Assembly: GCA_965232875.1 (NCBI GenBank)
Contig: OZ247431.1
Coordinates: 1,720,376 to 1,784,375 of the forward strand
Reading direction: 5' to 3'
Length of the DNA stretch: 64,000 nucleotides
Source of the DNA: Dehalococcoidia bacterium
GTDB taxonomy: Bacteria; Chloroflexota; Dehalococcoidia; Bin125
The position numbers and the translations under genes are program-made. The number at the start of each line of letters is the position of its first letter. The first letter of the stretch is position 1. Below, in pieces: positions 2,273-13,189 of the stretch. The notes under the pieces were generated by a model. It ran no database searches. It was given only the letters and a program-made list of their open reading frames with translations, and was not told the origin of the DNA.

Positions 2273-4858
2273 TTAGTCGTTTGTGGATGCATCAGTTCGC
2301 ATGAACCGGGGCAAGAGCTCATCGGGATATGCGATGCCGACCAAACCCTTCGCTTCCAGCTCAGCGAGTTCGTCTTCCGAGTAACCAAGCAGATCGCAGT
2401 AGATCTCCCGGTTGTGCTCGCCGAGCTTTGCCGGCGGCGTACGCAGTTGATTAGGAGTCCGGCTCATGGTGAACGTCAGCCCCGGATAACGATGCGTGCC
2501 GACGCCTTCGATGGTCATCTGCTCGAAGAAGCCGACTTCGCGTAGATGCCGATCCGATAGCGCGTCGAACGGATCGTTCAGTGGCGCCGCGCAGATACCT
2601 GCGGCTTGCAGCTTGTGGAACAGGTCTTCCTTGTTCCAGACCCTGGTCTCCTGGGCGATCAATTCGTCCAGCGCATCCGAGTTGGCCAGGCGTCCCTCAG
2701 CGTTCGTGAAGCGAGTATCGAGCGGTGCATGAGCCAGATCAGACTGCACCGAAGCCTCGCCGAGACCGGCGGCCAGCGAATTGCAGAGTGTCACGAACTC
2801 GGTGTCGGAACCGATGTCGATGGCGATCCACTGATCTTCGCCGCGGCAGGGATAGACGCCGTAGGGAGCGCGAATGTGATGACTGTTGCCCTGTGACGGC
2901 GGATTGACGCCGTTCATCGAGTGCTGGAACAGATACTCCGCCAGCGTAGGTATGAAGCCCTCGTTCAGCGGCATTTCGATCTGTTGTCCGACGCCGGTCT
3001 GCTCGCGGTGTCGCAGCGCCATCAGCACGGCGACGGCGCCCTGCACACCCGAGAGGCCGTCGCTGGCCAGGGTTTCGCCAATTCCTTCTGGACCGCGGTC
3101 GGGATATCCGCGCAAGTGCGTATGGCCGACCATGGCCTCGACATGCAGCCCGAACGCGCGGTAGGTGGCATATGGACCCTCTAGCCCAAATGCCGGCATG
3201 CGCAGCATGATCAGCCTGGGGTTCACCTGCCTCACCTCTTCCCAGGTGATGCCTGCCTTGTCAATCGTGGTAGGTACGTTGTTTTCGACCAGCACATCGC
3301 ATTGTTCAATGAGTTTGAAGAATGCGTCGCGACCCTCAGGCGACATGATGTCGCAAGTCATCGATCGCTTGTTCCGAGCGTGAGAGTTGAATGAAGCAAA
3401 CCGGTTCCAGGGGTCATCGCCTGGTTCGGCATCGGGATATTGAGGCTGAACGCCGATCTCCGCGCCGCGCAGCATCGTCTCACGCGACTGGACGTTCTCG
3501 GCGCCTCGTGTGTATGGCTGAATCCGATTCACCGGTTCGACGTTGATCACGTCCGCGCCCCACTCGGCCAGAAGCTGCGCCACGTGCGGACCTGCCCAAA
3601 CCACGGTGATCGCCGCCACCCGAATCCCTTCGAGTGGCAAGTGCAAGGCGCTCAGCGGGCCCTCCGGCAGCGAATGGCGCGCGTCCTCGAGCGGGTCCGG
3701 CGGGGTCAGGTCGAGGACAACCCGCGAGTGCTCCCCGAGTCGCGGCGAACGCTTTGGCCGCGGCGGGTGAGATTCACTCATCCGGAACGGGAACCCGGGA
3801 TAGGGCAGCTCCGACCCATGCCAATGGGTAATGCGATGCCACCAATCTCGGGACTCGAGCTGTGGATCCTCAAGCACATCCGGCACCGTCATCACGGCTC
3901 CCGCCAACAGCCCGGCGGCCTGCGCCGAGGCCACTGCCTCAATCTTGCCGACATCGGCGAGGTGCGCCTCCACCGCTTCGTCAACCTTGGCGCCGAACCC
4001 CGATCCCGGGCGCGGGCCAGCCAGGAAGTCCTCGTCCTCGAGCAAGTCCTCACGCCCGATCCAGCGCAACAGCCTGGGCATCCGGTTGCCTGAGCCAACG
4101 ATGTTGACGAAGCCGTCGGCGCATGGGTACATGCCAAAGCCGACGAGGCGCCGGGTCGGTAGCGCGCGACCGGGGGCCACTCCGCTGTACTCGGCTGCCA
4201 CCAGTTGAATGGTTCGACGATCGCGGCAGCCGGCCTGGCAGCGATAAATCGAAATGTCGATCCAGTCACCGGCCAACTCGTCATTGGCGGCACGCTTGAG
4301 CGCAAGCAAGATGGCAAAGGCGGCCGTTGCGCCGGCGTGGTAGCCGGCATAGTGGCCAGCGACTTTGATCGGCTCTCGATCAGCGGCGCCGGTCGCGTGC
4401 AACGGACCGCCGATCGCCTGCATCGTGATCTCCGAGCCACGGTAGTCGCGATACGGCCCCGCTTGGCCGTACGGTGTGATCGAACAAAAGATCAGCTTGT
4501 GGTTGATCGCATGCAGCGTTTCCCAGCCCCATCCGGCGGCCTCCGCCTCGCCCGGCGGCAATGCTTCGATCACGACATCGACCAGTTGCGCCAGGCGCCG
4601 CACCGTGGCGCCGCCATCGTCGGTGTGCGGATCGAGCACGATTGACTGCTTGTTGGTGTTGAGATGCAAAAAGAGGCCGGAGGCCTCGGGGTCGGGCCGG
4701 CTGTCAGGAAACGGACCAAAGCGGCGCGAGGGATCGCCACCGCGAGGCTCCGCCTTGATCACTCTCGCCCCATAGTCGGCGAGCAGTTTCGTCGCGTACG
4801 GACCGGCAACGCCGCTGGTCAAGTCCAGTACGGTGATTCCCTCCAACGGACCGGCCAT
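2273..4858 (-). CDS. Fused tandem CoA-transferase family III (CaiB/BaiF-like) protein, two complete domains
   Basis: N-terminal half GITVLDLTSGVAGPYATKLLADYGARVIKAEP and second half GIRVAAITVVWAGPHVAQLLAEWGADVINVEP both match the family III CoA-transferase N-terminal signature. Total length 861 aa. Confidence 0.75.
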   Translation of the reverse strand: MAGPLEGITVLDLTSGVAGPYATKLLADYGARVIKAEPRGGDPSRRFGPFPDSRPDPEASGLFLHLNTNKQSIVLDPHTDDGGATVRRLAQLVDVVIEALPPGEAEAAGWGWETLHAINHKLIFCSITPYGQAGPYRDYRGSEITMQAIGGPLHATGAADREPIKVAGHYAGYHAGATAAFAILLALKRAANDELAGDWIDISIYRCQAGCRDRRTIQLVAAEYSGVAPGRALPTRRLVGFGMYPCADGFVNIVGSGNRMPRLLRWIGREDLLEDEDFLAGPRPGSGFGAKVDEAVEAHLADVGKIEAVASAQAAGLLAGAVMTVPDVLEDPQLESRDWWHRITHWHGSELPYPGFPFRMSESHPPRPKRSPRLGEHSRVVLDLTPPDPLEDARHSLPEGPLSALHLPLEGIRVAAITVVWAGPHVAQLLAEWGADVINVEPVNRIQPYTRGAENVQSRETMLRGAEIGVQPQYPDAEPGDDPWNRFASFNSHARNKRSMTCDIMSPEGRDAFFKLIEQCDVLVENNVPTTIDKAGITWEEVRQVNPRLIMLRMPAFGLEGPYATYRAFGLHVEAMVGHTHLRGYPDRGPEGIGETLASDGLSGVQGAVAVLMALRHREQTGVGQQIEMPLNEGFIPTLAEYLFQHSMNGVNPPSQGNSHHIRAPYGVYPCRGEDQWIAIDIGSDTEFVTLCNSLAAGLGEASVQSDLAHAPLDTRFTNAEGRLANSDALDELIAQETRVWNKEDLFHKLQAAGICAAPLNDPFDALSDRHLREVGFFEQMTIEGVGTHRYPGLTFTMSRTPNQLRTPPAKLGEHNREIYCDLLGYSEDELAELEAKGLVGIAYPDELLPRFMRTDASTND

Positions 4859-5095
4859 GTCTGCTCCCCATTGGCCTGCTGAAACATCAACAGGCTAACC
4901 GCCATTGCCGATCCTTCCCAAGCGGAGGCGAACCTGCTGCTTATGTCACCACCTTCTTGTCGGGGATGAGCGCGGAGATTCGCACCAAGCCCGATTCCAG
5001 AGGCGTAGAGTGACCGGCAATGAAGCTGCAGGAGAGGAGGACGAACCAACAGCTTCCAACATCGTCCGAGACCAGTTGGAACATGGAGAGAAACG

Positions 5096-5272
5096 ATGAG
5101 CAAGAAACTCAACGCCTCCACACCGACCCGGCTCGCGACGACTGCGGTGATCATTCTGCTCGCAGCCGCAGCCGCCACGTTCCTCGTTGACAAGACCGAG
5201 GCAAGCCCGCAAACCGAATCCCCCCTCAACACCCTTGCGCAGGGACGCCCAACCTCAACGCCATCAGTGTGA
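5096..5272 (+). CDS. Small (58 aa) hypothetical protein with N-terminal hydrophobic anchor
   Basis: ATG preceded by GGAGAG. Translates MSKKLNASTPTRLATTAVIILLAAAAATFLV... Shorter than the ORF-track cutoff. Lies in an AT-richer islet. Confidence 0.3.
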   Translation: MSKKLNASTPTRLATTAVIILLAAAAATFLVDKTEASPQTESPLNTLAQGRPTSTPSV

Positions 5273-5329
5273 GGGGAGAGTGCTTCCCATGATCTTCACG
5301 CGAGCATCCGAACAGCCGACGGAGAAGGT

Positions 5330-5686
5330 TTGTCCCTCGGCTTCACTTGGCCTTATGACTTGTGGGGCATAACCATGCAACAAATCGCTTCGATGATACA
5401 TCGAATCGGACCACGCGATGACTACCAATACGGCGCCGGGGTCATCGCTCTGGGATTGGCCGCGTTCGTCTTGTCAGGACTGAATCCCTACCCTACGCTC
5501 GGATACTGGCAGACGCAGTTTCAACTCGTTTGTTTCGCAGGTTTGTTGTTGTTGACCGGAGCATACGCTCTGCCGGCCACGAGTCGCAGATGGTACGGGG
5601 TGAAGCTTCTCATCGCTTCTGCCGCTATCCACTGGATGTTTATCCTCCCTATTGCCAGATACTGGGGACGCTGGGACAACTTCTAA
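5330..5686 (+). CDS. Small integral membrane protein (hypothetical)
   Basis: 3-4 predicted TM segments. Paralogous to the next ORF (shared LTG..LP.SR...GWY...LLIA.A.IH pattern). Confidence 0.4.
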   Translation: MSLGFTWPYDLWGITMQQIASMIHRIGPRDDYQYGAGVIALGLAAFVLSGLNPYPTLGYWQTQFQLVCFAGLLLLTGAYALPATSRRWYGVKLLIASAAIHWMFILPIARYWGRWDNF

Positions 5687-5712
5687 GCAGCACTTGCGGA
5701 ACGGTGAGAACA

Positions 5713-6030
5713 ATGTCAGTACGGGAGTGGATCAGTAGCAACGTCAGGTTCCTGATTGGCGCAGCCGTAACAGGTGTTGGCGTCATCGCGTGGTACAACA
5801 CCATGTGGTTCATGATTTCGCCCGGGTTGGATTTCACCGGGTTGCGGTTTCAGGCTTTGCTCTGGTTGTGGCCGATGTGCATCATCGTCGTCCTGACGGG
5901 ACTGCTGACACTACCTCCCAGCCGCGATCGTACAGCCGGTTGGTACTGTTTCGTGCTGTTAGCAATCGCCACCGCGATTCACGCACTCGTGCAGGGCTAT
6001 CAGTTCGACGAGCGGTTGCTCTGGTGGTGA
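5713..6030 (+). CDS. Small integral membrane protein (hypothetical), paralog of the upstream ORF
   Basis: Internal Met of track ORF 5530..6030. Hydrophobic, similar to 5330..5686. Confidence 0.4.
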   Translation: MSVREWISSNVRFLIGAAVTGVGVIAWYNTMWFMISPGLDFTGLRFQALLWLWPMCIIVVLTGLLTLPPSRDRTAGWYCFVLLAIATAIHALVQGYQFDERLLWW

Positions 6031-6051
6031 CATCAGCACCGCTCTGGCGCC

Positions 6052-7212
6052 TCAACGGCTGCGTCGCGCTTCCATACCCAGCAGAGGACGCGCGCCGGCG
6101 TCGAAGTTCCATTCCAGTGCTGCCCCGTGCTGGCGAGCCGTCTGCAAGTCTCGCCAACGTCGCTCTAGCGTCCATGTTCGACGAGCCGCCTTCGTTCCGC
6201 CGGCTCGGAAGAGCTTCTCGATCGCATCCACACATGCATGAACCGCATGCACGTTGGCCAGCCGGCATCTCCCGAGTAGCTTGGCGTCGGGAGCGCCTTG
6301 TTCGATAGACGGCCAGGCGGTCGTCCAGGCTTCCTGTACGAGGGCGCGGGCAGCCGAGACCTCGGCCTGGGCCCGTGCGAACGCGAGACGAAACGGCTCA
6401 CGCTCTCGCAATGCGGCTGTGTCTCCGGTTGTCGACTCTGACGCGACCGCGGCCAGATCGTCCAGCGCCCCTTGCGCGGCGCCCACAGCGTGTCCGGCAT
6501 TGGCAATCCAGGCCACCAGTGAACGGTCGGGCACGTTCCATTGCGGACCCTCGGCATATGGCGGATCCAACGCCGCCCAGGTATGCGCGTTCTGCACAAA
6601 CGCCCTGTCAACTTCCCAATCGTGGCTGCCCGTGCCCCTCAGACCCATCGCGTCCCATGTCTCAATGATCGTTCCCGCTCGTTGCGGCAGCAATGCAAAC
6701 CGCACGCAATCTTCAAAGTCCACGAACGTGGCCACGATGTAGGTCGCGTGCTCAACGCCGCTGACAAAGTTCAAGCGACCGCTCAATCGGTAGCCCGACA
6801 CATCCGGTTCCGCTGTCGTCATCACACGTGATGAGCCGACAATCCGGCAACTTGGACCGCCCGGCTCCTCGCCCCCGATCATCTGGCTCAACACTGGGTT
6901 CGGCAGATACGCCGCCAATAGGGACACCTCGGTGGCGATCATTACCACCCAGGCCGTCGAGGCGTCAGCATGCGCTAGCGCTTCGATGACGTGGAAGACG
7001 ACCAAGGGGTGCGCTTGCTCGCCGTAGCTGCGCGCCGGCAGATTCAACCGATACAGCCCGCGAGCCGTGATCGCTTCGATGATCTCACGTGGGACCGAAC
7101 CAGTTTCCTCAATCACATCCGCGCATTCGCGAATCATCGGCTGCAACTCGCGAGCCGCCGCAACGAGCGGATGATCCTCATACTGGGCGAACACGCTGGA
7201 GGATTGAGCCAT
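6052..7212 (-). CDS. Acyl-CoA dehydrogenase-like flavoprotein (type-2 ACAD / flavin monooxygenase-like)
   Basis: 386 aa with ACAD-fold-like sequence (…IIEAITARGLYRLNLP…). Confidence 0.65.
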   Translation of the reverse strand: MAQSSSVFAQYEDHPLVAAARELQPMIRECADVIEETGSVPREIIEAITARGLYRLNLPARSYGEQAHPLVVFHVIEALAHADASTAWVVMIATEVSLLAAYLPNPVLSQMIGGEEPGGPSCRIVGSSRVMTTAEPDVSGYRLSGRLNFVSGVEHATYIVATFVDFEDCVRFALLPQRAGTIIETWDAMGLRGTGSHDWEVDRAFVQNAHTWAALDPPYAEGPQWNVPDRSLVAWIANAGHAVGAAQGALDDLAAVASESTTGDTAALREREPFRLAFARAQAEVSAARALVQEAWTTAWPSIEQGAPDAKLLGRCRLANVHAVHACVDAIEKLFRAGGTKAARRTWTLERRWRDLQTARQHGAALEWNFDAGARPLLGMEARRSR

Positions 7213-7280
7213 GAGGCGCAGGGTATCGGTGGGCCTCTAGACTCGGGCTCATAACGAACTGGCGTCGCGAACACATCCGA

Positions 7281-8537
7281 TTGAAGGACCGAATGAGCAC
7301 TGAACGCAACCGAACGAACGATATGGCTCTACGCGAGCGGGCCAAATCCGTCATTCCCAACGGCATGTACGGACACCAGAACGCAGCAATCCTGCCTTCC
7401 AACTTCCCGCAGTTCTTCGCCAGGGGCGAGGGATCGCACCTCTGGGATGTGGATGGCAACGAGTACATCGACTACATCTGCGCCTACGGGCCAATCGTGC
7501 TCGGTTACCAGCACCCCGGCGTCGACCGAGCGATCGCAGACGCGCAGGATGTCGGCGACTGCATGAACGGTCCCTCGGAACAGATGGTGGAGCTCGCTGA
7601 ACTGCTCGTCGACATCACACCCTGGGCAGACTGGGCCTGGTTCGCCAAGAACGGCACTGACGCCACCGTCTACGCGGCATCAGTCGCCCGCACCGCGACC
7701 GGCAAGGGCACGCTTCTCCGCGCCCATAACGCCTACCACGGCGCCGCCCCCACCTGGATCACCGCGGGCGACATGACGCAACAGGCAGACGGCACCCTCG
7801 AGTACGAGTTCAATGATCTCGCCTCGGTCCGCTCAGCGATCGACGCAGCCGAAGGCGACGCTGCGGCCATCATTGTCTCGGCCTTCCGTCACGACGTTGG
7901 ACTCGACCAGGAAATGCCGACCGTCGAGTTCGCGCAGGGAGTACGCGATCTCTGCGACGCAAACAACATTCCGCTCATCCTCGATGATGTGCGAGGTGGC
8001 TTCCGCCTCGATCTCGCCGGCAGTTGGGCGCCCCTCGGCGTCGACCCAGACCTGAGCATCTACTGCAAGGCAATCGGCAACGGCCAACCAATCTCCGCCC
8101 TGATGGGACGCGAAAGCCTGACTGAAGCGGTTGCGAAGACCTTCGCCACCGGCTCCTACTGGTTCACCGGCGCACCAATGGCGGCGGCTCACGCAACGAT
8201 CACCACGCTGCAAGAAACCGACGGCATCGCGCGTATGGACCGGATCGGCAACGCCCTGCGAGAAGGTTGGCAGCAGGCCGCCGACTCCCACGGCGTCGGC
8301 ATCCGTCAAACCGGTCCAGTATCAATTCCGCTCATGCTGTTCGATGGCGACGATTTCTCAACCAGAGACGTCCCCCGCGCGTACCGCTTCGCCGCAGAAC
8401 TCGCCGACCGAGGCGTCTACTTGCATCCAGTCCACAACGGCTTCCTCTCAACCGCATTGGACGACAACGACATCGCCCACACGCTCGAGGCCTCAGACGA
8501 AGCATTCGCAGTCGTCGCCGCGGAGTTCGGGGACTAG
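7281..8537 (+). CDS. Class-III aminotransferase (glutamate-1-semialdehyde aminomutase-like)
   Basis: SVIPNGMYGH…SHLWDVDGNEYIDY…YGPIVLGY is typical of GSA-AT-like class III PLP enzymes. Confidence 0.75.
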   Translation: MKDRMSTERNRTNDMALRERAKSVIPNGMYGHQNAAILPSNFPQFFARGEGSHLWDVDGNEYIDYICAYGPIVLGYQHPGVDRAIADAQDVGDCMNGPSEQMVELAELLVDITPWADWAWFAKNGTDATVYAASVARTATGKGTLLRAHNAYHGAAPTWITAGDMTQQADGTLEYEFNDLASVRSAIDAAEGDAAAIIVSAFRHDVGLDQEMPTVEFAQGVRDLCDANNIPLILDDVRGGFRLDLAGSWAPLGVDPDLSIYCKAIGNGQPISALMGRESLTEAVAKTFATGSYWFTGAPMAAAHATITTLQETDGIARMDRIGNALREGWQQAADSHGVGIRQTGPVSIPLMLFDGDDFSTRDVPRAYRFAAELADRGVYLHPVHNGFLSTALDDNDIAHTLEASDEAFAVVAAEFGD

Positions 8538-8584
8538 GTCGTGTTCACTTGGATGTTGACAGCCCATGCTTGGCGCGCCAGCAT

Positions 8585-8640
8585 TCCCCGCTCCCCCTTG
8601 CAGGGGGAGCTGCCGAAGGCTGAGGGGGTCCCACTCCCCA
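8585..8640. repeat. G-rich palindromic intergenic repeat (CCCCCTTGCAGGGGGAGCTGCCGAAGGCTGAGGGGG)
   Basis: Related copies at about 39960-40060 and 55690-55900, sharing the CTTCGGCAGC core and CCCCTTGCAGGGGG palindromes. Confidence 0.7.
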
Positions 8641-8749
8641 TCGACAGACCTGTGTAACCTCCGTCCGCTGTTCCACACCAAGTGAACAGACGCCAGCAGT
8701 ATCCCGCTCGGGGACGTTGGTCGAAGGCTCATTGGGACCTCCAAAGGGA

Positions 8750-8785
8750 CCCTCACCCTAACCCTCTCCCAGAGGGAGAGGGGAC
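8750..8785. repeat. REP-like palindromic element CCCTCACCCTAACCCTCTCCCAGAGGGAGAGGGGAC
   Basis: Identical 36-mer recurs at 40665-40700. Contains the palindrome CCCTCTCCC-AGA-GGGAGAGGG. Translates to 'PLPEGEG' in one frame. Confidence 0.8.
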
Positions 8786-10465
8786 CGAAGAGAGGCGGCT
8801 TAGTGGGATCGATTGCGGGGATAAACGAAGGAGAGCGCGAACCCAACGCCGGCGCCCAGCATCGCGGCGGCTACAACCGATCGGCGCATGCTTGGGACCG
8901 ATTCGTTACTGATGTTGGCCACAGGCTCATCAGGCGGACGCAACTGGGCCCGAAGTTCCAGATCAAACACGTCCGACACGCCGTTCAAACGCACTGGTTG
9001 ACTGGGACGGGTCGAGATGGGAATGTCTCGCGCCGAGCTCACTACCGGTCCCGATGAACGCGACGCAATCGCCCTCTTCGGCTCGGGGCGCTCAACTGCG
9101 ACGGCGGCGGCGGGCATCCCCTCGCGACGCAGCCGAATCTCCTTCATCCGCAAGATGGCGAGCACCGAGACAAACACGATCGCCGCGGCCAGCAGGAAGT
9201 TGTCGGTGATCGCCGTCGCCACCGCCGCCTGCACCTGAGGCTCGGCGACTGTCCAGACCTCAGGGCCAAGGTCGTTCATCAAGTCTTCGCGGAAGATCGG
9301 ATCGACCAGCTTTTCCGGCTGCACTCTGTCCGCGACATCTGGCTCAAGACGCTCAGTCAGCCCGCTGGCCAGTCGGGCGTTGAACAGCGCCCCAATCACG
9401 CCAATCCCGATCACACCGCCCACTTGCTGGAAGAACTGCGTGAACGCCGAGACAATGCCCAGATACTTCTGCGGGGACGCATTCTGCGAGGCAATCGACA
9501 TCACCGGCATCATCAGTCCCATGCCAATCCCAAACAGGAACATCCGGCCCAGCACGCCGGGAATCGTGGTGTCACGTGTCATGGTCGAGAGCAGCAGCAT
9601 CGAGCTGAACATCATCAAGGAACCGGTTACGGCGAGGAATTTGTAGCGCCCGGTTCGAGACATCACCTGACCGGACACGACTGAGGCGAAGACCGAGACC
9701 AGGATCATCGGTCCCATGACCAGTCCGGCCGTAGCAGCGTCGGCGCCGAGTCCCACCTGCAGGTAAAACTGCAAGTAGACAAACACGCCCATCATGCCCA
9801 CGCCGAGGAAGAAATTCACAACTGCCGTCGTCGCGACGGTGGGGATCTTGAACAGTTCCAGCGGCACGATCGGCTGCTCGGCGCTGCGCTCGACCCGGAA
9901 GAAGAGGTACATCGCCGCCGCTGAGATTGCGAACAGCGCCAGCGTCTGAGGAGCGAACCAACCCCAGGTTGCAGCCAGGCTGAGCGAGATCATCGCCGGC
10001 ACCAGCGCCGTTGTCAGCAACACGACACCCTTGATGTCCAGACGGAACGGCTTCGGCGGAGGCCGTAGCCAGGGCATCTTCAATGCGATCACGAACAGCA
10101 CGATCGGACCCAGCGCCAGCATCACCCAGAAGACCCAACGCCAGGACAACGTCTCAGTCAGGACACCCCCGAGCGGCGCCCCGATCAAGCCGCTCAAGGC
10201 AAACACACCACCGAAGAGTCCGATAAACCGGCCACGGTCGGCGGGCAGGTACAGATCGCCAACGACTGAGAATGTGGCCGTCATCAGGATCGCCGCACCT
10301 ACGCCCTGCACGGCACGCGATCAGCTCATAGATGCCCGGCGCAAACCCGCACATCGCCGAGCCCAACAGGAAAATGATCAGACCGCCGAGCAACACCGGC
10401 TTACGGCCATAGATATCGCTCAACGTGCCGGCCACAGGAATCGTGACGACCTGCGCCATGATGAA

Positions 10466-10490
10466 GGGAATGAATCCCCAAGGTTGACAA
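10466..10490. repeat. Left terminal inverted repeat of IS1595-family element
   Basis: GGGAATGAATCCCCAAGGTTGACAA. Confidence 0.8.
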
Positions 10491-10535
10491 CCAGATAGGA
10501 TTTCTGTACCCTGAATACATCAGGGAGAGACAGAA

Positions 10536-11456
10536 ATGACCAACAAAGAACGCACCGGAATCAGCCTCATGCAGTTGGCCGACATGTTCCCTGACGAGGA
10601 TTCCGCCCGCGTCTGGTTCGAATCACGCATCTGGGGCGATGAGCGACATTGCCCGCGTTGCGGCTCCGATAAGACCGTCGAATCCAAGCACGCCAAGATG
10701 CCGTACTGGTGCACTGAGGGCCGCCACTACTTCTCGGTCAAGACGGGTACGGTCATGGAGTCGTCGAAGCTCCCGCTGCGCAAGTGGGTCTACGCCATCT
10801 ACCTACACCTCACGTCGCTCAAAGGCGTCTCGTCGCACAAGCTGGCGCGCGATATCGGCATCGGCCAACGTGCCGCCTGGTTCATGTTGCAGCGCATCCG
10901 GCAAGCGTTCGAGGAAGACAGCGGTGCGCAGTTCGGCGGTCCGGTCGAAGTCGATGAGACGTACATCGGCGGTCGCGAGAAGAACAAGCACTCAAGCAAG
11001 CGGCTCAAGCAGGGTCGCGGCACAGTCGGCAAGACGGCAGTCGTGGGGGCGAAGGATCGCAAGACCAAGCAGGTCAAAGCCAAAGTCGTCGGCAACGTTG
11101 ACCGCATGACGCTGCATGGATTCATCGACGACTACGTCGCGCGCGGCGCCCAGCTCTACACGGATGAGGCCACGGCCTATCGCGGCGCACGTATGAACCA
11201 TGGCGCGGTCAGGCACTCGGTCGGCGAGTACGTGGACGGGATGGCGCACACGAACGGGATTGAGTCGTTCTGGGCGATGCTCAAGCGCGGCTACATCGGG
11301 ACGTATCACCAGATGTCGGCGAAGCACCTGCATCGCTACATCTGCGAGTTCGCAGGGCGTCACAACGTGCGGCGGTTGGACACGGCGGAGCAGATGGGCG
11401 AGCTGGCGTCGGGGATGCAGGGCAAGCGCCTGACCTACGCGGAGCTGATCAGTTAG
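10536..11456 (+). CDS. IS1595-family transposase (N-terminal zinc-ribbon + DDE domain)
   Basis: GISLMQLADMFPDEDSARVWFESRIWG…CPRCGS…YWCTEGRHYFSVKTGTVMESSKLPLRKWVYAIYL…TSLKGVSSHKLARDIGI is the hallmark IS1595 transposase N-terminus. Confidence 0.9.
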   Translation: MTNKERTGISLMQLADMFPDEDSARVWFESRIWGDERHCPRCGSDKTVESKHAKMPYWCTEGRHYFSVKTGTVMESSKLPLRKWVYAIYLHLTSLKGVSSHKLARDIGIGQRAAWFMLQRIRQAFEEDSGAQFGGPVEVDETYIGGREKNKHSSKRLKQGRGTVGKTAVVGAKDRKTKQVKAKVVGNVDRMTLHGFIDDYVARGAQLYTDEATAYRGARMNHGAVRHSVGEYVDGMAHTNGIESFWAMLKRGYIGTYHQMSAKHLHRYICEFAGRHNVRRLDTAEQMGELASGMQGKRLTYAELIS

Positions 11457-11785
11457 ATACCACCAAGCCCCAGGCGCTTCGTGAGAACATCACTTCGCTC
11501 TTGTAGCTGTTCGCGCTCGCGAAGCAGACTGGCGAGTTCGGCCGGCTTGGGAAGAACGAATGGATGGCCAGGTCGCGAGTCATCGAGAAAATTCAGGTCC
11601 AGATTGTTGCCCTCACCGTCGATCCCAAACGCGCGACTCGAATTCTCACGACATGCATCCTGGGCATATCTGAACACCTGTCCATACTCGTCGAGCTTAT
11701 CCTGGACACATCTCAGAGTCCGTCCAGCGTCTTGGAGCTCTCTGAGCATTTGGCCTCGTCGCGCGTCTTCTTCTTTGGCGTTCAT
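11453..11785 (-). CDS. Hypothetical 110-aa passenger protein inside the IS1595-family element
   Basis: Intact ORF in AT-richer DNA. Immediately downstream of, and co-oriented with, the HExxH passenger gene. Confidence 0.4.
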   Translation of the reverse strand: MNAKEEDARRGQMLRELQDAGRTLRCVQDKLDEYGQVFRYAQDACRENSSRAFGIDGEGNNLDLNFLDDSRPGHPFVLPKPAELASLLREREQLQERSDVLTKRLGLGGI

Positions 11786-11845
11786 CCTCTTACCCTTCGC
11801 TACTGCCCTGAGCTTATTCCTTTCTTCGTTGCTGCCTCGCCCCGT

Positions 11846-12529
11846 TCATTTGATCGGGTCGTAGACCACGCCTTCGCAGACGTTCAGGCCAAGCCCAGCC
11901 TCGACCACCCAACCGCACTGTGACACAGGGTCATACAGCCCGAGCAGGTCCAGCATCCATGCCAGCACATCCACCCATGTGTGCGAGTGCATCGAGGGTG
12001 GCTTACCCAAGATCTCCCAGTCCGCATGATGAGCAAACTCATGAAGAATCGGGAAGATCAGCAGCTCTTCAGGATTGAACACCAATGTGGTGTTCCCACC
12101 CTCCCGGATCGCACAGGCCAACCCGTGAGCAGGACAACGGTCGAAGTTCGTCGACACTCTCGGAACCTGGATACCCAATGCGTCGGCCATGCTCGCCACG
12201 GCCACCCTCGTCTCGGCCATCGTTCGCGGCTCATACAGGAAGTCGATCGCCTCCGCGCCGATCAAGTCGCACCCCTGCGTGAACGTCAAGGTGTTCAGGA
12301 ACAACGCCTGGACGGTCTCCATATCGCGCACACTTGAGAAATCCCGTTTGCTGTGGACTTCTGCAAGCCTGGTCCGAAAATTTTCAGCGGGATAGCCGAG
12401 ATCGGGACAATCGACTGCAACGATTGGCGGGGGTTCAGGCTCGACGTCTAACTCGGCCGGGACAATGCCGGCGCTCAGTGCGAGCAACAGGTACCAAAGG
12501 AGAGCGAGAGCGGGTGTGATCCAAGCCAT
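11846..12529 (-). CDS. Secreted HExxH (zincin-like) metallopeptidase-like passenger protein
   Basis: N-terminal signal peptide MAWITPALALLWYLLLALSAG. HEFAHH motif followed by further His/Glu residues. Several Cys. Located within the IS boundaries. Confidence 0.5.
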   Translation of the reverse strand: MAWITPALALLWYLLLALSAGIVPAELDVEPEPPPIVAVDCPDLGYPAENFRTRLAEVHSKRDFSSVRDMETVQALFLNTLTFTQGCDLIGAEAIDFLYEPRTMAETRVAVASMADALGIQVPRVSTNFDRCPAHGLACAIREGGNTTLVFNPEELLIFPILHEFAHHADWEILGKPPSMHSHTWVDVLAWMLDLLGLYDPVSQCGWVVEAGLGLNVCEGVVYDPIK

Positions 12530-12792
12530 GATGTGTTCCCAACTGCCTGCGTCGTAAGTTGGAGAACAGGGCGTACGGCAAATGGATCACGTGGTCGGAG
12601 GACGGCGGCGAAGGCAGATGGGGTACGAGGCACAGGGCCCCCTTCTTGGCGACGGACTGAGCTGTCGCCAAACAGAGATCAAACCGTCTGTGTGCCGAGA
12701 AGGGGACATCAGGACACCTCAATCCGCAAGGTCGACACATTGCCGGCTGCGATCTCTGTTTGGCAGGGGCAGGCTAGGGAGCTAGAATCAGA

Positions 12793-12817
12793 CTGTCAAC
12801 CTTTAGGCTTTATTCCC
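12793..12817. repeat. Right terminal inverted repeat of IS1595-family element
   Basis: CTGTCAACCTTTAGGCTTTATTCCC, reverse complement GGGAATAAAGCCTAAAGGTTGACAG. Confidence 0.8.
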
Positions 12818-13189
12818 ATGATGAAGGCCTGCACCAGCCAGGGATACAACTCGAGCCCGCCCAGCTCCGAGACGATCTGCGGCATCGCCGGATTGACCAC
12901 GCTCTGCTCGAGCGAGGCCATGAACATGCCCAACATCGCGCTGATGATGATCAGCCGCTTGGTCCGCTTCGGCAGATCAATGCCCAGCGGGCGCTGCTCG
13001 TCGGGCGACGCTTGGGGATCGGCAGAGTCGGTGTGGACGGACACGTAGAACTGTTTCGGCTGCGCGAACTAACCCTCAGGGTACGAAGCTGCGCGAATGC
13101 GGGCTAGTCGCAGCGACTCGGGAGCGCATTCGACCGAGTGCTAACCTGATTACATCTCCCGCATCCTCGCTGACAGGAAGGTAAACGCC

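Follow-up and report, generated by a model that had tools for sequence, protein, structure and literature searches.

Insertion sequences (ISs) that carry passenger genes have been defined as transporter ISs (tISs) and are limited to the IS1595 and IS66 families (bioRxiv 10.1101/2021.05.26.445724). We analysed a 64,000-nucleotide stretch of a Dehalococcoidia bacterium genome (contig OZ247431.1, positions 1,720,376 to 1,784,375 of the forward strand), referred to here as the window, and found in it a single copy of a 2352-bp IS1595-family element (10466-12817). A transposase gene (tnp) lies on its plus strand, and genes for a 227-residue protein (p227) and then a 110-residue protein (p110) lie on its minus strand. 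The founding description of tISs is reportedly that of Siguier, Gagnevin and Chandler in 2009 (Res Microbiol 160:232), and a passenger-bearing ISNwi1-type group is said to be among them. The window element shares with known IS1595 tISs a single DDE_Tnp_IS1595 transposase with a zinc ribbon, short inverted repeats starting with GG, an 8-bp duplication and enclosed passengers. It is unlike them in its cargo, p227, which belongs to an orphan family not previously linked to an IS. The element is thus an IS1595-family tIS with a previously unseen passenger, although the tIS kind itself was already known.

As a whole, the explanation that we consider probable is a tIS with a swappable, exported, zincin-like p227 and a backbone p110. 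The backbone would comprise the GGGAAT...GGTTGACA inverted repeats, the transposase, an inward promoter in the right inverted repeat (IRR), a structured leader of ~100 nt and p110. A passenger slot would lie between the leader and p110, occupied here by p227 and in a sister element by an unrelated secreted protein; in other relatives, DNA methylase-HNH genes and small membrane proteins appear to make up most of the cargo. p227 may be exported and disulfide-stabilised (six Cys), with a minimal zincin-like core in which HExxH (H163, E164, H167) lies on a helix and H181 is the probable third zinc ligand. Transcription of the passenger and p110, running antisense into tnp, could damp transposase expression. 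Export, zinc binding and catalysis of p227, promoter activity, and a role for p110 and the leader hairpin, are what we infer beyond the observed architecture. To our knowledge, a p110-type backbone protein, a right-end inward promoter and a conserved leader hairpin have not been described for the IS1595 family. If p110 and the hairpin are functional, they add an accessory layer to an IS family regarded as simple and one-gene.

Architecture of the element

The features of the locus are as follows.

8800-13044, minus strand: host gene split by the IS, an MFS (major facilitator superfamily) transporter; N-terminal part 12818-13044, remainder 8800-10465
10458-10465, no strand: left 8-bp target-site duplication, ATGATGAA
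10466-10489, plus strand: left inverted repeat (IRL), 24 nt, GGGAATGAATCCCCAAGGTTGACA
10536-11456, plus strand: tnp, 306 aa, N-terminal zinc ribbon and DDE domain
11453-11785, minus strand: p110, 110 aa, probable accessory/backbone gene of the tIS lineage
11786-11845, minus strand: p227-p110 intergenic region, exactly 60 bp, belonging to the conserved backbone
11846-12529, minus strand: p227, 227 aa, passenger gene; hydrophobic N-terminus, acidic Pro-rich linker, Cys-rich HEFAHH domain
11846-12636, minus strand: swapped passenger module, consisting of the p227 open reading frame (ORF) and ~107 nt of its own upstream sequence (12530-12636)
12667-12764, minus strand: predicted leader hairpin, ~100 nt, imperfect; base GCCAAACAGAGATC / GATCTCTGTTTGGC, perfect 14-nt arms
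12771-12799, minus strand: putative right-end inward promoter; -35 TTGACA 12799-12794 in IRR, 17-nt spacer, -10 TAGCCT 12776-12771
12794-12817 (12817-12794 read inwards), minus strand: IRR, 24 nt, GGGAATAAAGCCTAAAGGTTGACA
12818-12825, no strand: right 8-bp target-site duplication, ATGATGAA

The window sequence from 10466 to 12817 is an IS1595-family insertion that interrupts the MFS gene. Its termini read GGGAATGAA and GGGAATAAA; IRL and IRR match at 19/24 positions in a script comparison, and IRR is 96% identical to the right end of the related element L001. In-silico deletion of 10466-12825 (the IS and one repeat copy) rejoined the MFS halves in frame, giving ...YPWLVQAFIMAQVVTIPVAGTLSDIYGRKP... 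across the restored junction, which the IS splits between ...LVQAFIM and AQVVTIPVAGTLSDIYGRKP... The transposase belongs to the IS1595 family, with matches to DDE_Tnp_IS1595 (PF12762, 8.1e-40) and transpos_IS1595 (NCBIfam NF033547, 3.7e-57). Its Zn_ribbon_IS1595 match (PF12760, 1.5e-5) scored 25.3 bits against a cut-off of 25.4.

The original prediction, made from the letters and ORF translations, had placed two co-oriented ORFs inside an IS: one of 227 aa with a HEFAHH motif and several Cys, and one of 110 aa lying 60 bp downstream. All of these were present in the window, and the inverted repeats together with the ATGATGAA duplication place both ORFs inside the IS boundaries. The two are co-oriented with each other, and the picture is refined in that both converge on tnp. 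p110 and tnp share 3-4 bp at their stop codons. Both are real genes rather than chance ORFs, because homologues exist: those of p227 keep its Cys and His residues, and those of p110 are 31-92% identical.

Exchange of the passenger next to a retained p110

A public protein 92% identical to p110 (P0013, 110 aa) occurs on 12 contigs according to a cluster look-up, with genomic contexts available as L090-L092. These represent a sister tIS, which in L090 spans 4201-6320, is flanked by the duplication TTTTCAAG and encodes a transposase 87% identical to that of the window. At the DNA level the two elements are 86% identical over a stretch that starts at the left end and takes in tnp, p110 and the 60-bp intergenic region, and 80% identical over 61 bp at the right end. 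Homology covers 10481-11843 and ~12637-12817 of the window with none between, and restarts immediately past the passenger stop codon. The slot of L090-L092 instead encodes a protein of 178 aa, unrelated to p227, that has a classical signal peptide (MPSRTGSRWIVIVGTLILAGFAAIGSA, followed by DEP). L001 (transposase 88% identical, same repeats) carries a methylase-HNH gene and a different small ORF. Passengers are therefore swapped in this clade with a precision down to the ORF. As expected of a tIS, p227 is enclosed between IRR and tnp, and the passenger differs in L090 and L001.

This exchange bears on the proposal, made in the original prediction, that p227 and p110 are a peptidase/inhibitor or effector/immunity pair. 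If p110 were a cognate inhibitor or immunity protein, it should move along with its target, which it does not. A 92%-identical p110 stands beside an unrelated passenger in L090-L092, other homologues stand beside varied cargo, and two p227 relatives (P0003 and P0004) have no p110 nearby. The pairing, attractive as it was, is thus corrected: p110 belongs to the mobile element and is neither inhibitor nor immunity partner of the peptidase.

The p227 family

HEFAHH corresponds to p227 residues 163-168 (nucleotides 12043-12026, minus strand), and p227 has six Cys. An exhaustive phmmer search of 1.84 billion cluster representatives recovered only P0003 (247 aa, 41% identity, 1.4e-36), P0004 (173 aa, 1.5e-8) and P0005 (117 aa, 8e-4) as relatives. 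The family is very rare, with four clusters in that set. In the alignment, C132, C139, H163, E164, H167, H181, C205 and C218 are invariant in 4/4 members, and C41 and C87 are retained wherever the N-terminal part exists. A word-indexed search of 5.8 billion proteins returned no p227 relative beyond the window's own proteins, and an exact-sequence contig look-up of P0001 gave no record. JGI metagenome contigs scanned with family alignments of p227 and of p110 yielded zero relatives; IMG/VR scans, and tblastn against phages and plasmids, likewise yielded none. P0003 and P0004 matched no peptidase family in Pfam at E <= 0.1, and neither p227, p110 nor the alternative passengers matched a PADLOC defence model at E <= 1. 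Judged by its sequence, p227 is outside any described family.

A hydrophobic export or anchor segment occupies residues ~5-25 of p227; hydropathy averaged over 19 residues on the Kyte-Doolittle scale peaks at 2.07 for residues 7-25, and the sequence after the segment is acidic and rich in Pro. P0003 has the same N-terminal layout. The HExxH gene of L083 (the 11.5-kb contig that carries P0005), when extended across a frameshift to an ATG at 5002, begins MTVYLTSLALTILISIAIG, again hydrophobic with an acidic flank on its downstream side, and continues into a Pro-rich linker. P0004, extended to an upstream in-frame TTG in the L082 sequence, begins MTFRLQLLLVALLSVGC with a lipobox-type LLLVALLSVGC. 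The most likely role of the N-terminal hydrophobic segment is to export p227 or tether it to the membrane, in keeping with the signal peptide originally predicted. The export-type N-termini across the family, together with the even number of conserved Cys, point to an extracytoplasmic, disulfide-bonded domain.

An AlphaFold2 (AF2) model of p227 was built on the four-sequence alignment (mean pLDDT 67.8; 75-93 over residues 100-200). It comprises a helix (104-118), three strands (124-126, 138-143 and 146-151), the HExxH helix (158-174) and a further helix (183-195). H163, E164 and H167 fall within the predicted helix 158-174, and the invariant H181, a probable third zinc ligand, lies just before helix 183-195. 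A Foldseek search of the PDB returned nothing significant, although the top matches were all metalloproteases (MATCAP, M32, ZMPSTE24 and BlaR1; E 0.24-1.5). Matches in BFVD were borderline (best E 1.6e-4 to 5e-3); the named ones were IrrE N-terminal-like proteins (5.0e-3) and, more weakly, SprT-like phage proteins (0.09-0.4). The earlier suggestion of a zincin-like protein is thus upheld as far as a conserved HExxH on a helix and a zincin-like core in the model, with only borderline structural matches. We regard the zincin-like label as reasonable but not proven, and p227 as a putative extracytoplasmic zinc metallopeptidase.

The described proteins closest to this model are the SprT-like and ImmA/IrrE (M78) minimal zincins. 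As in these, the HExxH of p227 is predicted on a helix after a small beta-sheet, with a His 14 residues past the motif. SprT and ImmA/IrrE are cytoplasmic, whereas p227 carries an apparent export signal and six conserved Cys. It also differs from them in having no Pfam or PDB sequence match, no helix-turn-helix (HTH) repressor partner and no DNA-binding or zinc-ribbon tail. The hallmarks of an ImmA/IrrE protease-repressor module were not found: the element has no HTH gene, p110 is modelled as two helices and p227 has an export-type N-terminus. SprT/SPRTN proteins have the signature HExxH-x(~14)-H-G-x-E-F. The p227 family shows the spacing HExxH-x11-14-H-x-x-E-[FW] (HEFAH-x12-HNREW in P0004, HEMAH-x11-HTDEF in P0005), which is reminiscent of that signature. 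Through the window element, a very rare family of predicted exported, Cys-rich HExxH proteins can be mobilised by a tIS.

The p110 family

p110 is small and acidic (pI 5.2) and has no hydrophobic segment. Its AF2 model (pLDDT 73) consists of helices 3-47 and 81-105 with a disordered joiner, of coiled-coil type and without an HTH; Foldseek of the model found generic coiled coils only. The public protein P0002 begins at Met13 (98 aa), 12 codons too late. The 110-aa start (ATG at 11785; window 11750-11785) is backed by P0013 and by L083 (MNAKEEDA versus MNAEEQDA), and a Shine-Dalgarno (SD)-like GAAGGGTAAGAGG precedes this ATG within the 60-bp intergenic region.

A word-indexed homology search with p110 returned only itself. 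In L083, tblastn revealed a frameshifted p110 homologue directly after, and convergent with, a frameshifted IS1595 tnp. A profile of the window and L083 sequences picked up a 109-aa ORF in the corresponding place of L042/L043, and the resulting three-sequence profile retrieved P0006-P0012. The window and L083 proteins form one subtype (41% identical), distinct from the 109-aa type (31-33%). All homologues with known context adjoin an IS1595 tnp (L083, L042/L043, L084-L092 and the weak members L008 and L067). They are convergent downstream of tnp in the window, L083, L042/43, L084-L087 and L089-L092. The following p110-bearing elements illustrate the variety of neighbours.

L084, IS 4628-7484, target-site duplication CTTCGATA: p110 beside a 93-aa protein and GT25 (glycosyltransferase)
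L085, IS 3919-6611, target-site duplication GAAACAAA: p110 beside 187-aa and 100-aa membrane proteins
L086/L087 and L089, L086 IS 2758-6506, target-site duplication TTTTGAAA, one end only within L087 and L089: p110 beside methylase-HNH
L042/L043, IS 4899-9869 / 4899-8535: p110 beside a 167-aa membrane protein
L088, 1-1365: IRL-p110-tnp, co-directional; p110 stop and tnp start overlap in ATGA
L008, 4604-7919: weak p110 member between IRL and tnp, co-directional; no other gene between IRL and tnp

The ATGA overlap in L088 suggests translational coupling of the p110-like gene with the transposase. Only a minority of related elements carry p110, and a neighbour-joining tree of the transposases showed that these are not monophyletic; the right-hand part of the elements therefore recombines. 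On this comparative evidence, p110 is a backbone gene of the tIS lineage, linked to the transposase, and its product probably has an accessory or regulatory function in the element. By analogy it may be likened to IS1 InsA, IS3 OrfA and IS66 TnpA/TnpB, which are also small element-encoded proteins tightly linked to tnp. It is unlike them in showing no detected sequence or fold similarity, in lacking an HTH and in being usually convergent with tnp. The 120-aa ORF found in the p110 position in L001 was considered as a relative and dropped, since hhalign against the p110 family gave a probability of 0.3% and the two are not detectably related.

L042 and L043 are two copies of one p110-bearing tIS on contig CAXXKO010000001.1 that differ internally. 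A 428-aa ORF, probably of TnpB type (OrfB_IS605/Cas12f-like), lies in opposite orientations in the two, and L042 has an additional 400-aa ORF that probably accounts for a DDE_Tnp_1 (IS4-like) match; in both cases the pairing of ORF with match is assumed.

Putative promoters and predicted leader hairpin

TTGACA is the hexamer conserved on the inner side of both inverted repeats. At the left end, this -35-like hexamer (10484-10489) is followed after 17 nt by TACCCT (10507-10512), then by an SD-like GGGAGAG and the tnp ATG. A -10-like hexamer 17 nt past TTGACA is common to ~45 relatives, and the left end is a candidate promoter for tnp. The right-end arrangement of the window, TTGACA-N17-TAGCCT, also occurs in L090; L001 and L002 have TTGACA-N17-TAnnnT with the cargo ATG within ~10 nt after it. 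From its sequence, the IRR promoter would drive the leader, p227 and p110 and continue antisense into tnp.

Folding of the window leader as RNA gave -51.5 kcal/mol (z = -6.0). L090-L092 have a hairpin in the same place (L090 4253-4353) with the same base, TGCCAAACA...TGTTTGGC, and different inner stems; the sister-element hairpin folds at -73 kcal/mol over 146 nt (z = -5.0). Compensatory changes are present in 6/29 pairs between the two. The hairpin is thus kept in position and structure across the window and sister tISs although their passenger ORFs differ. An Rfam scan of the element gave sub-threshold chance matches only, and none for the hairpin. In both elements an SD-like AAGGGGG lies past the hairpin. 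The passenger ATG follows it directly in L090, and ~107 nt more precede the p227 ATG in the window.

At the right ends of L041, L046, L074, L084, L085 and others, many of alphaproteobacterial type, we observed TTGAC(A/G)-N16-17-cATGATGnnCGGATG. In L085 the first cargo ATG is the final ATG of this motif, which suggests leaderless or very short-leader cargo mRNAs.

Weighing the explanations

That p227 and p110 form a cognate pair, whether peptidase and inhibitor or effector and immunity protein, mobilised as one unit, now seems very improbable. The operon-like layout with its 60-bp gap speaks for it, as does L083, the sole other locus with both families, again beside an IS1595 tnp; the p110 subtype shared by these two loci would also fit. 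To this extent the original prediction is supported. In L083 (5002-7141), however, tnp stands between the two genes, preceded on its own strand by the HExxH gene and followed by p110, so that no operon exists; tnp, p110 and the HExxH gene are all frameshifted, in a contig from a 1.32x-coverage long-read assembly. Elsewhere p110 accompanies methylase-HNH genes, membrane proteins or GT25, or stands upstream of tnp. P0003 sits amid ordinary-looking chromosomal genes, and the 270 bp of contig that follow it contain no p110; for P0004, 1.1 kb of contig are likewise free of it. p110 has no export signal, whereas the p227 domain is apparently extracytoplasmic. L090, with its breakpoint exactly at the passenger stop codon, had already largely refuted the pair. 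A looser partnership, with p110 serving any slot passenger as regulator, chaperone or sensor, possibly in a defence or exclusion module, rather than acting in transposition, is unlikely but deserves more weight. In most elements the passenger transcription unit ends with p110, restriction-modification-type genes dominate the relatives' cargo, and several partners are single-pass membrane or secreted proteins. The partners are nevertheless very heterogeneous and gave no PADLOC matches. In L088 and L008, p110 lies between IRL and tnp and is co-directional with the latter, and in L083 it is apparently the sole gene between tnp and the putative right end.

It is also doubtful, to a similar degree, that p227 is a zincin-like pseudoenzyme, or a secreted Cys/His metal-binding or adhesion-type protein in which HExxH is structural. 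No peptidase-family membership was detectable, the fold matches are borderline and the four invariant Cys could bind metal. Yet E164, both HExxH His and H181 are invariant across homologues only 28-41% identical, and the model places the motif on a helix preceded by a three-stranded sheet, which is the arrangement of zincins.

The tIS with an exchangeable, exported zincin-like p227 and a backbone p110 remains the explanation that we prefer, and several observations count against it. p227 has no Pfam, NCBIfam, PHROGs or PADLOC match at E <= 1, and a PDB sequence profile search with it found nothing relevant; p110 likewise has no Pfam, NCBIfam, PADLOC or PHROG match, and matches no PDB sequence. 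The p227 signal has no positively charged n-region and may be a signal anchor, and a Cys4 metal site is another possible role for the four invariant Cys. With an AF2 model that was built on four sequences and has a mean pLDDT of 67.8, the fold can be assigned only tentatively. A search for IS ends in L083 found no left end or target duplication. The L083 p110 subtype is the nearest to that of the window, which leaves room for a specific functional link between p227 and p110. As an observation in its own right, this very rare HExxH family was met twice next to p110-bearing IS1595 elements, in the window and in L083.

A more far-reaching proposal is that the right-hand backbone (inverted-repeat promoter, hairpin, SD-like element, slot and p110) is a dedicated passenger platform exchanging ORF-sized modules. 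p110 would then be a previously undescribed transposase-linked accessory that couples passenger expression to transposition control, via convergent transcription and/or binding of the transposase or the IS ends. We offer this as speculation with a low chance of being correct. The arrangement recalls integron cassettes, in that ORF-sized modules are exchanged at a fixed slot past a resident promoter with a ~100-nt imperfect inverted repeat adjacent. An integron-like cassette system was considered and rejected: the hairpin stays with the backbone instead of travelling with the cassette, and there is no integrase. Ordinary homologous recombination between related elements could account for the swap breakpoints.

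Related elements and their cargo

A transposase scan of 185,579 species-representative genomes identified 235 relatives, of which the best 80 were used. The hosts of these 80 include Dehalococcoidia/SAR202, Alphaproteobacteria, Rhodothermales, Gemmatimonadota, Acidobacteriota and other metagenome-assembled genomes (MAGs). A script that searched for inverted repeats bordered by identical 8-mers delimited 46 elements. These have GGGrmTTAyA...(G)GTTGACA ends (the GGTTGACA end) and AT-rich 8-bp duplications. The ISNwi1 subgroup in ISfinder has the repeat consensus ggnnatTAT; the clade consensus GGGrATTAyA resembles it.

Extra DNA of 0.6-4 kb follows tnp in 42/46 delimited relatives. Only one element, in three copies, is bare (1053 bp), and one more has 339 bp of extra DNA without an ORF. 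Among 57 cargo ORFs of relatives, Pfam matches included N6_N4_Mtase (11) and HNH (5), with further matches to a type I S subunit, Mrr, IceA and nested TnpB/IS4. The original prediction had called it unusual for an IS to carry such cargo. For IS1595 it is not, because tISs had already been described in this family and nearly all relatives carry cargo. The relatives make up a clade of IS1595 tISs that extends across several phyla of uncultured bacteria and shuttles mostly restriction-modification genes. A blastn search of plasmids with the whole IS matched only an 86-bp transposase fragment.

L001 (4931-7593) is among the closest relatives and has perfect 24-nt inverted repeats and the duplication CTTTCAAA. 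Its cargo is a frameshifted N6/N4 DNA methylase-HNH fusion and the unrelated 120-aa ORF, which stands where the window has p110. Another tIS of the clade, L053 (6582-8267, minus strand), carries a 561-aa cargo protein with HEIIH and a sub-threshold Pfam match to Peptidase_M91 (E 0.04), unrelated to p227. Transposases with the same type of inverted repeat, 56-88% identical, occur in MAGs of at least six phyla (L001-L080, from record titles). Several bin names, Spongia_Bin9 among them, suggest an origin in sponge-associated communities; if so, the elements would have spread between phyla within a single habitat.

The MFS remnant at 8800-10465 (minus strand) bears a second lesion, a frameshift near 10311 between ...GIYELIACRA and VQGVGAAILMTATF..., which reflects either post-insertion pseudogene decay or an assembly error.

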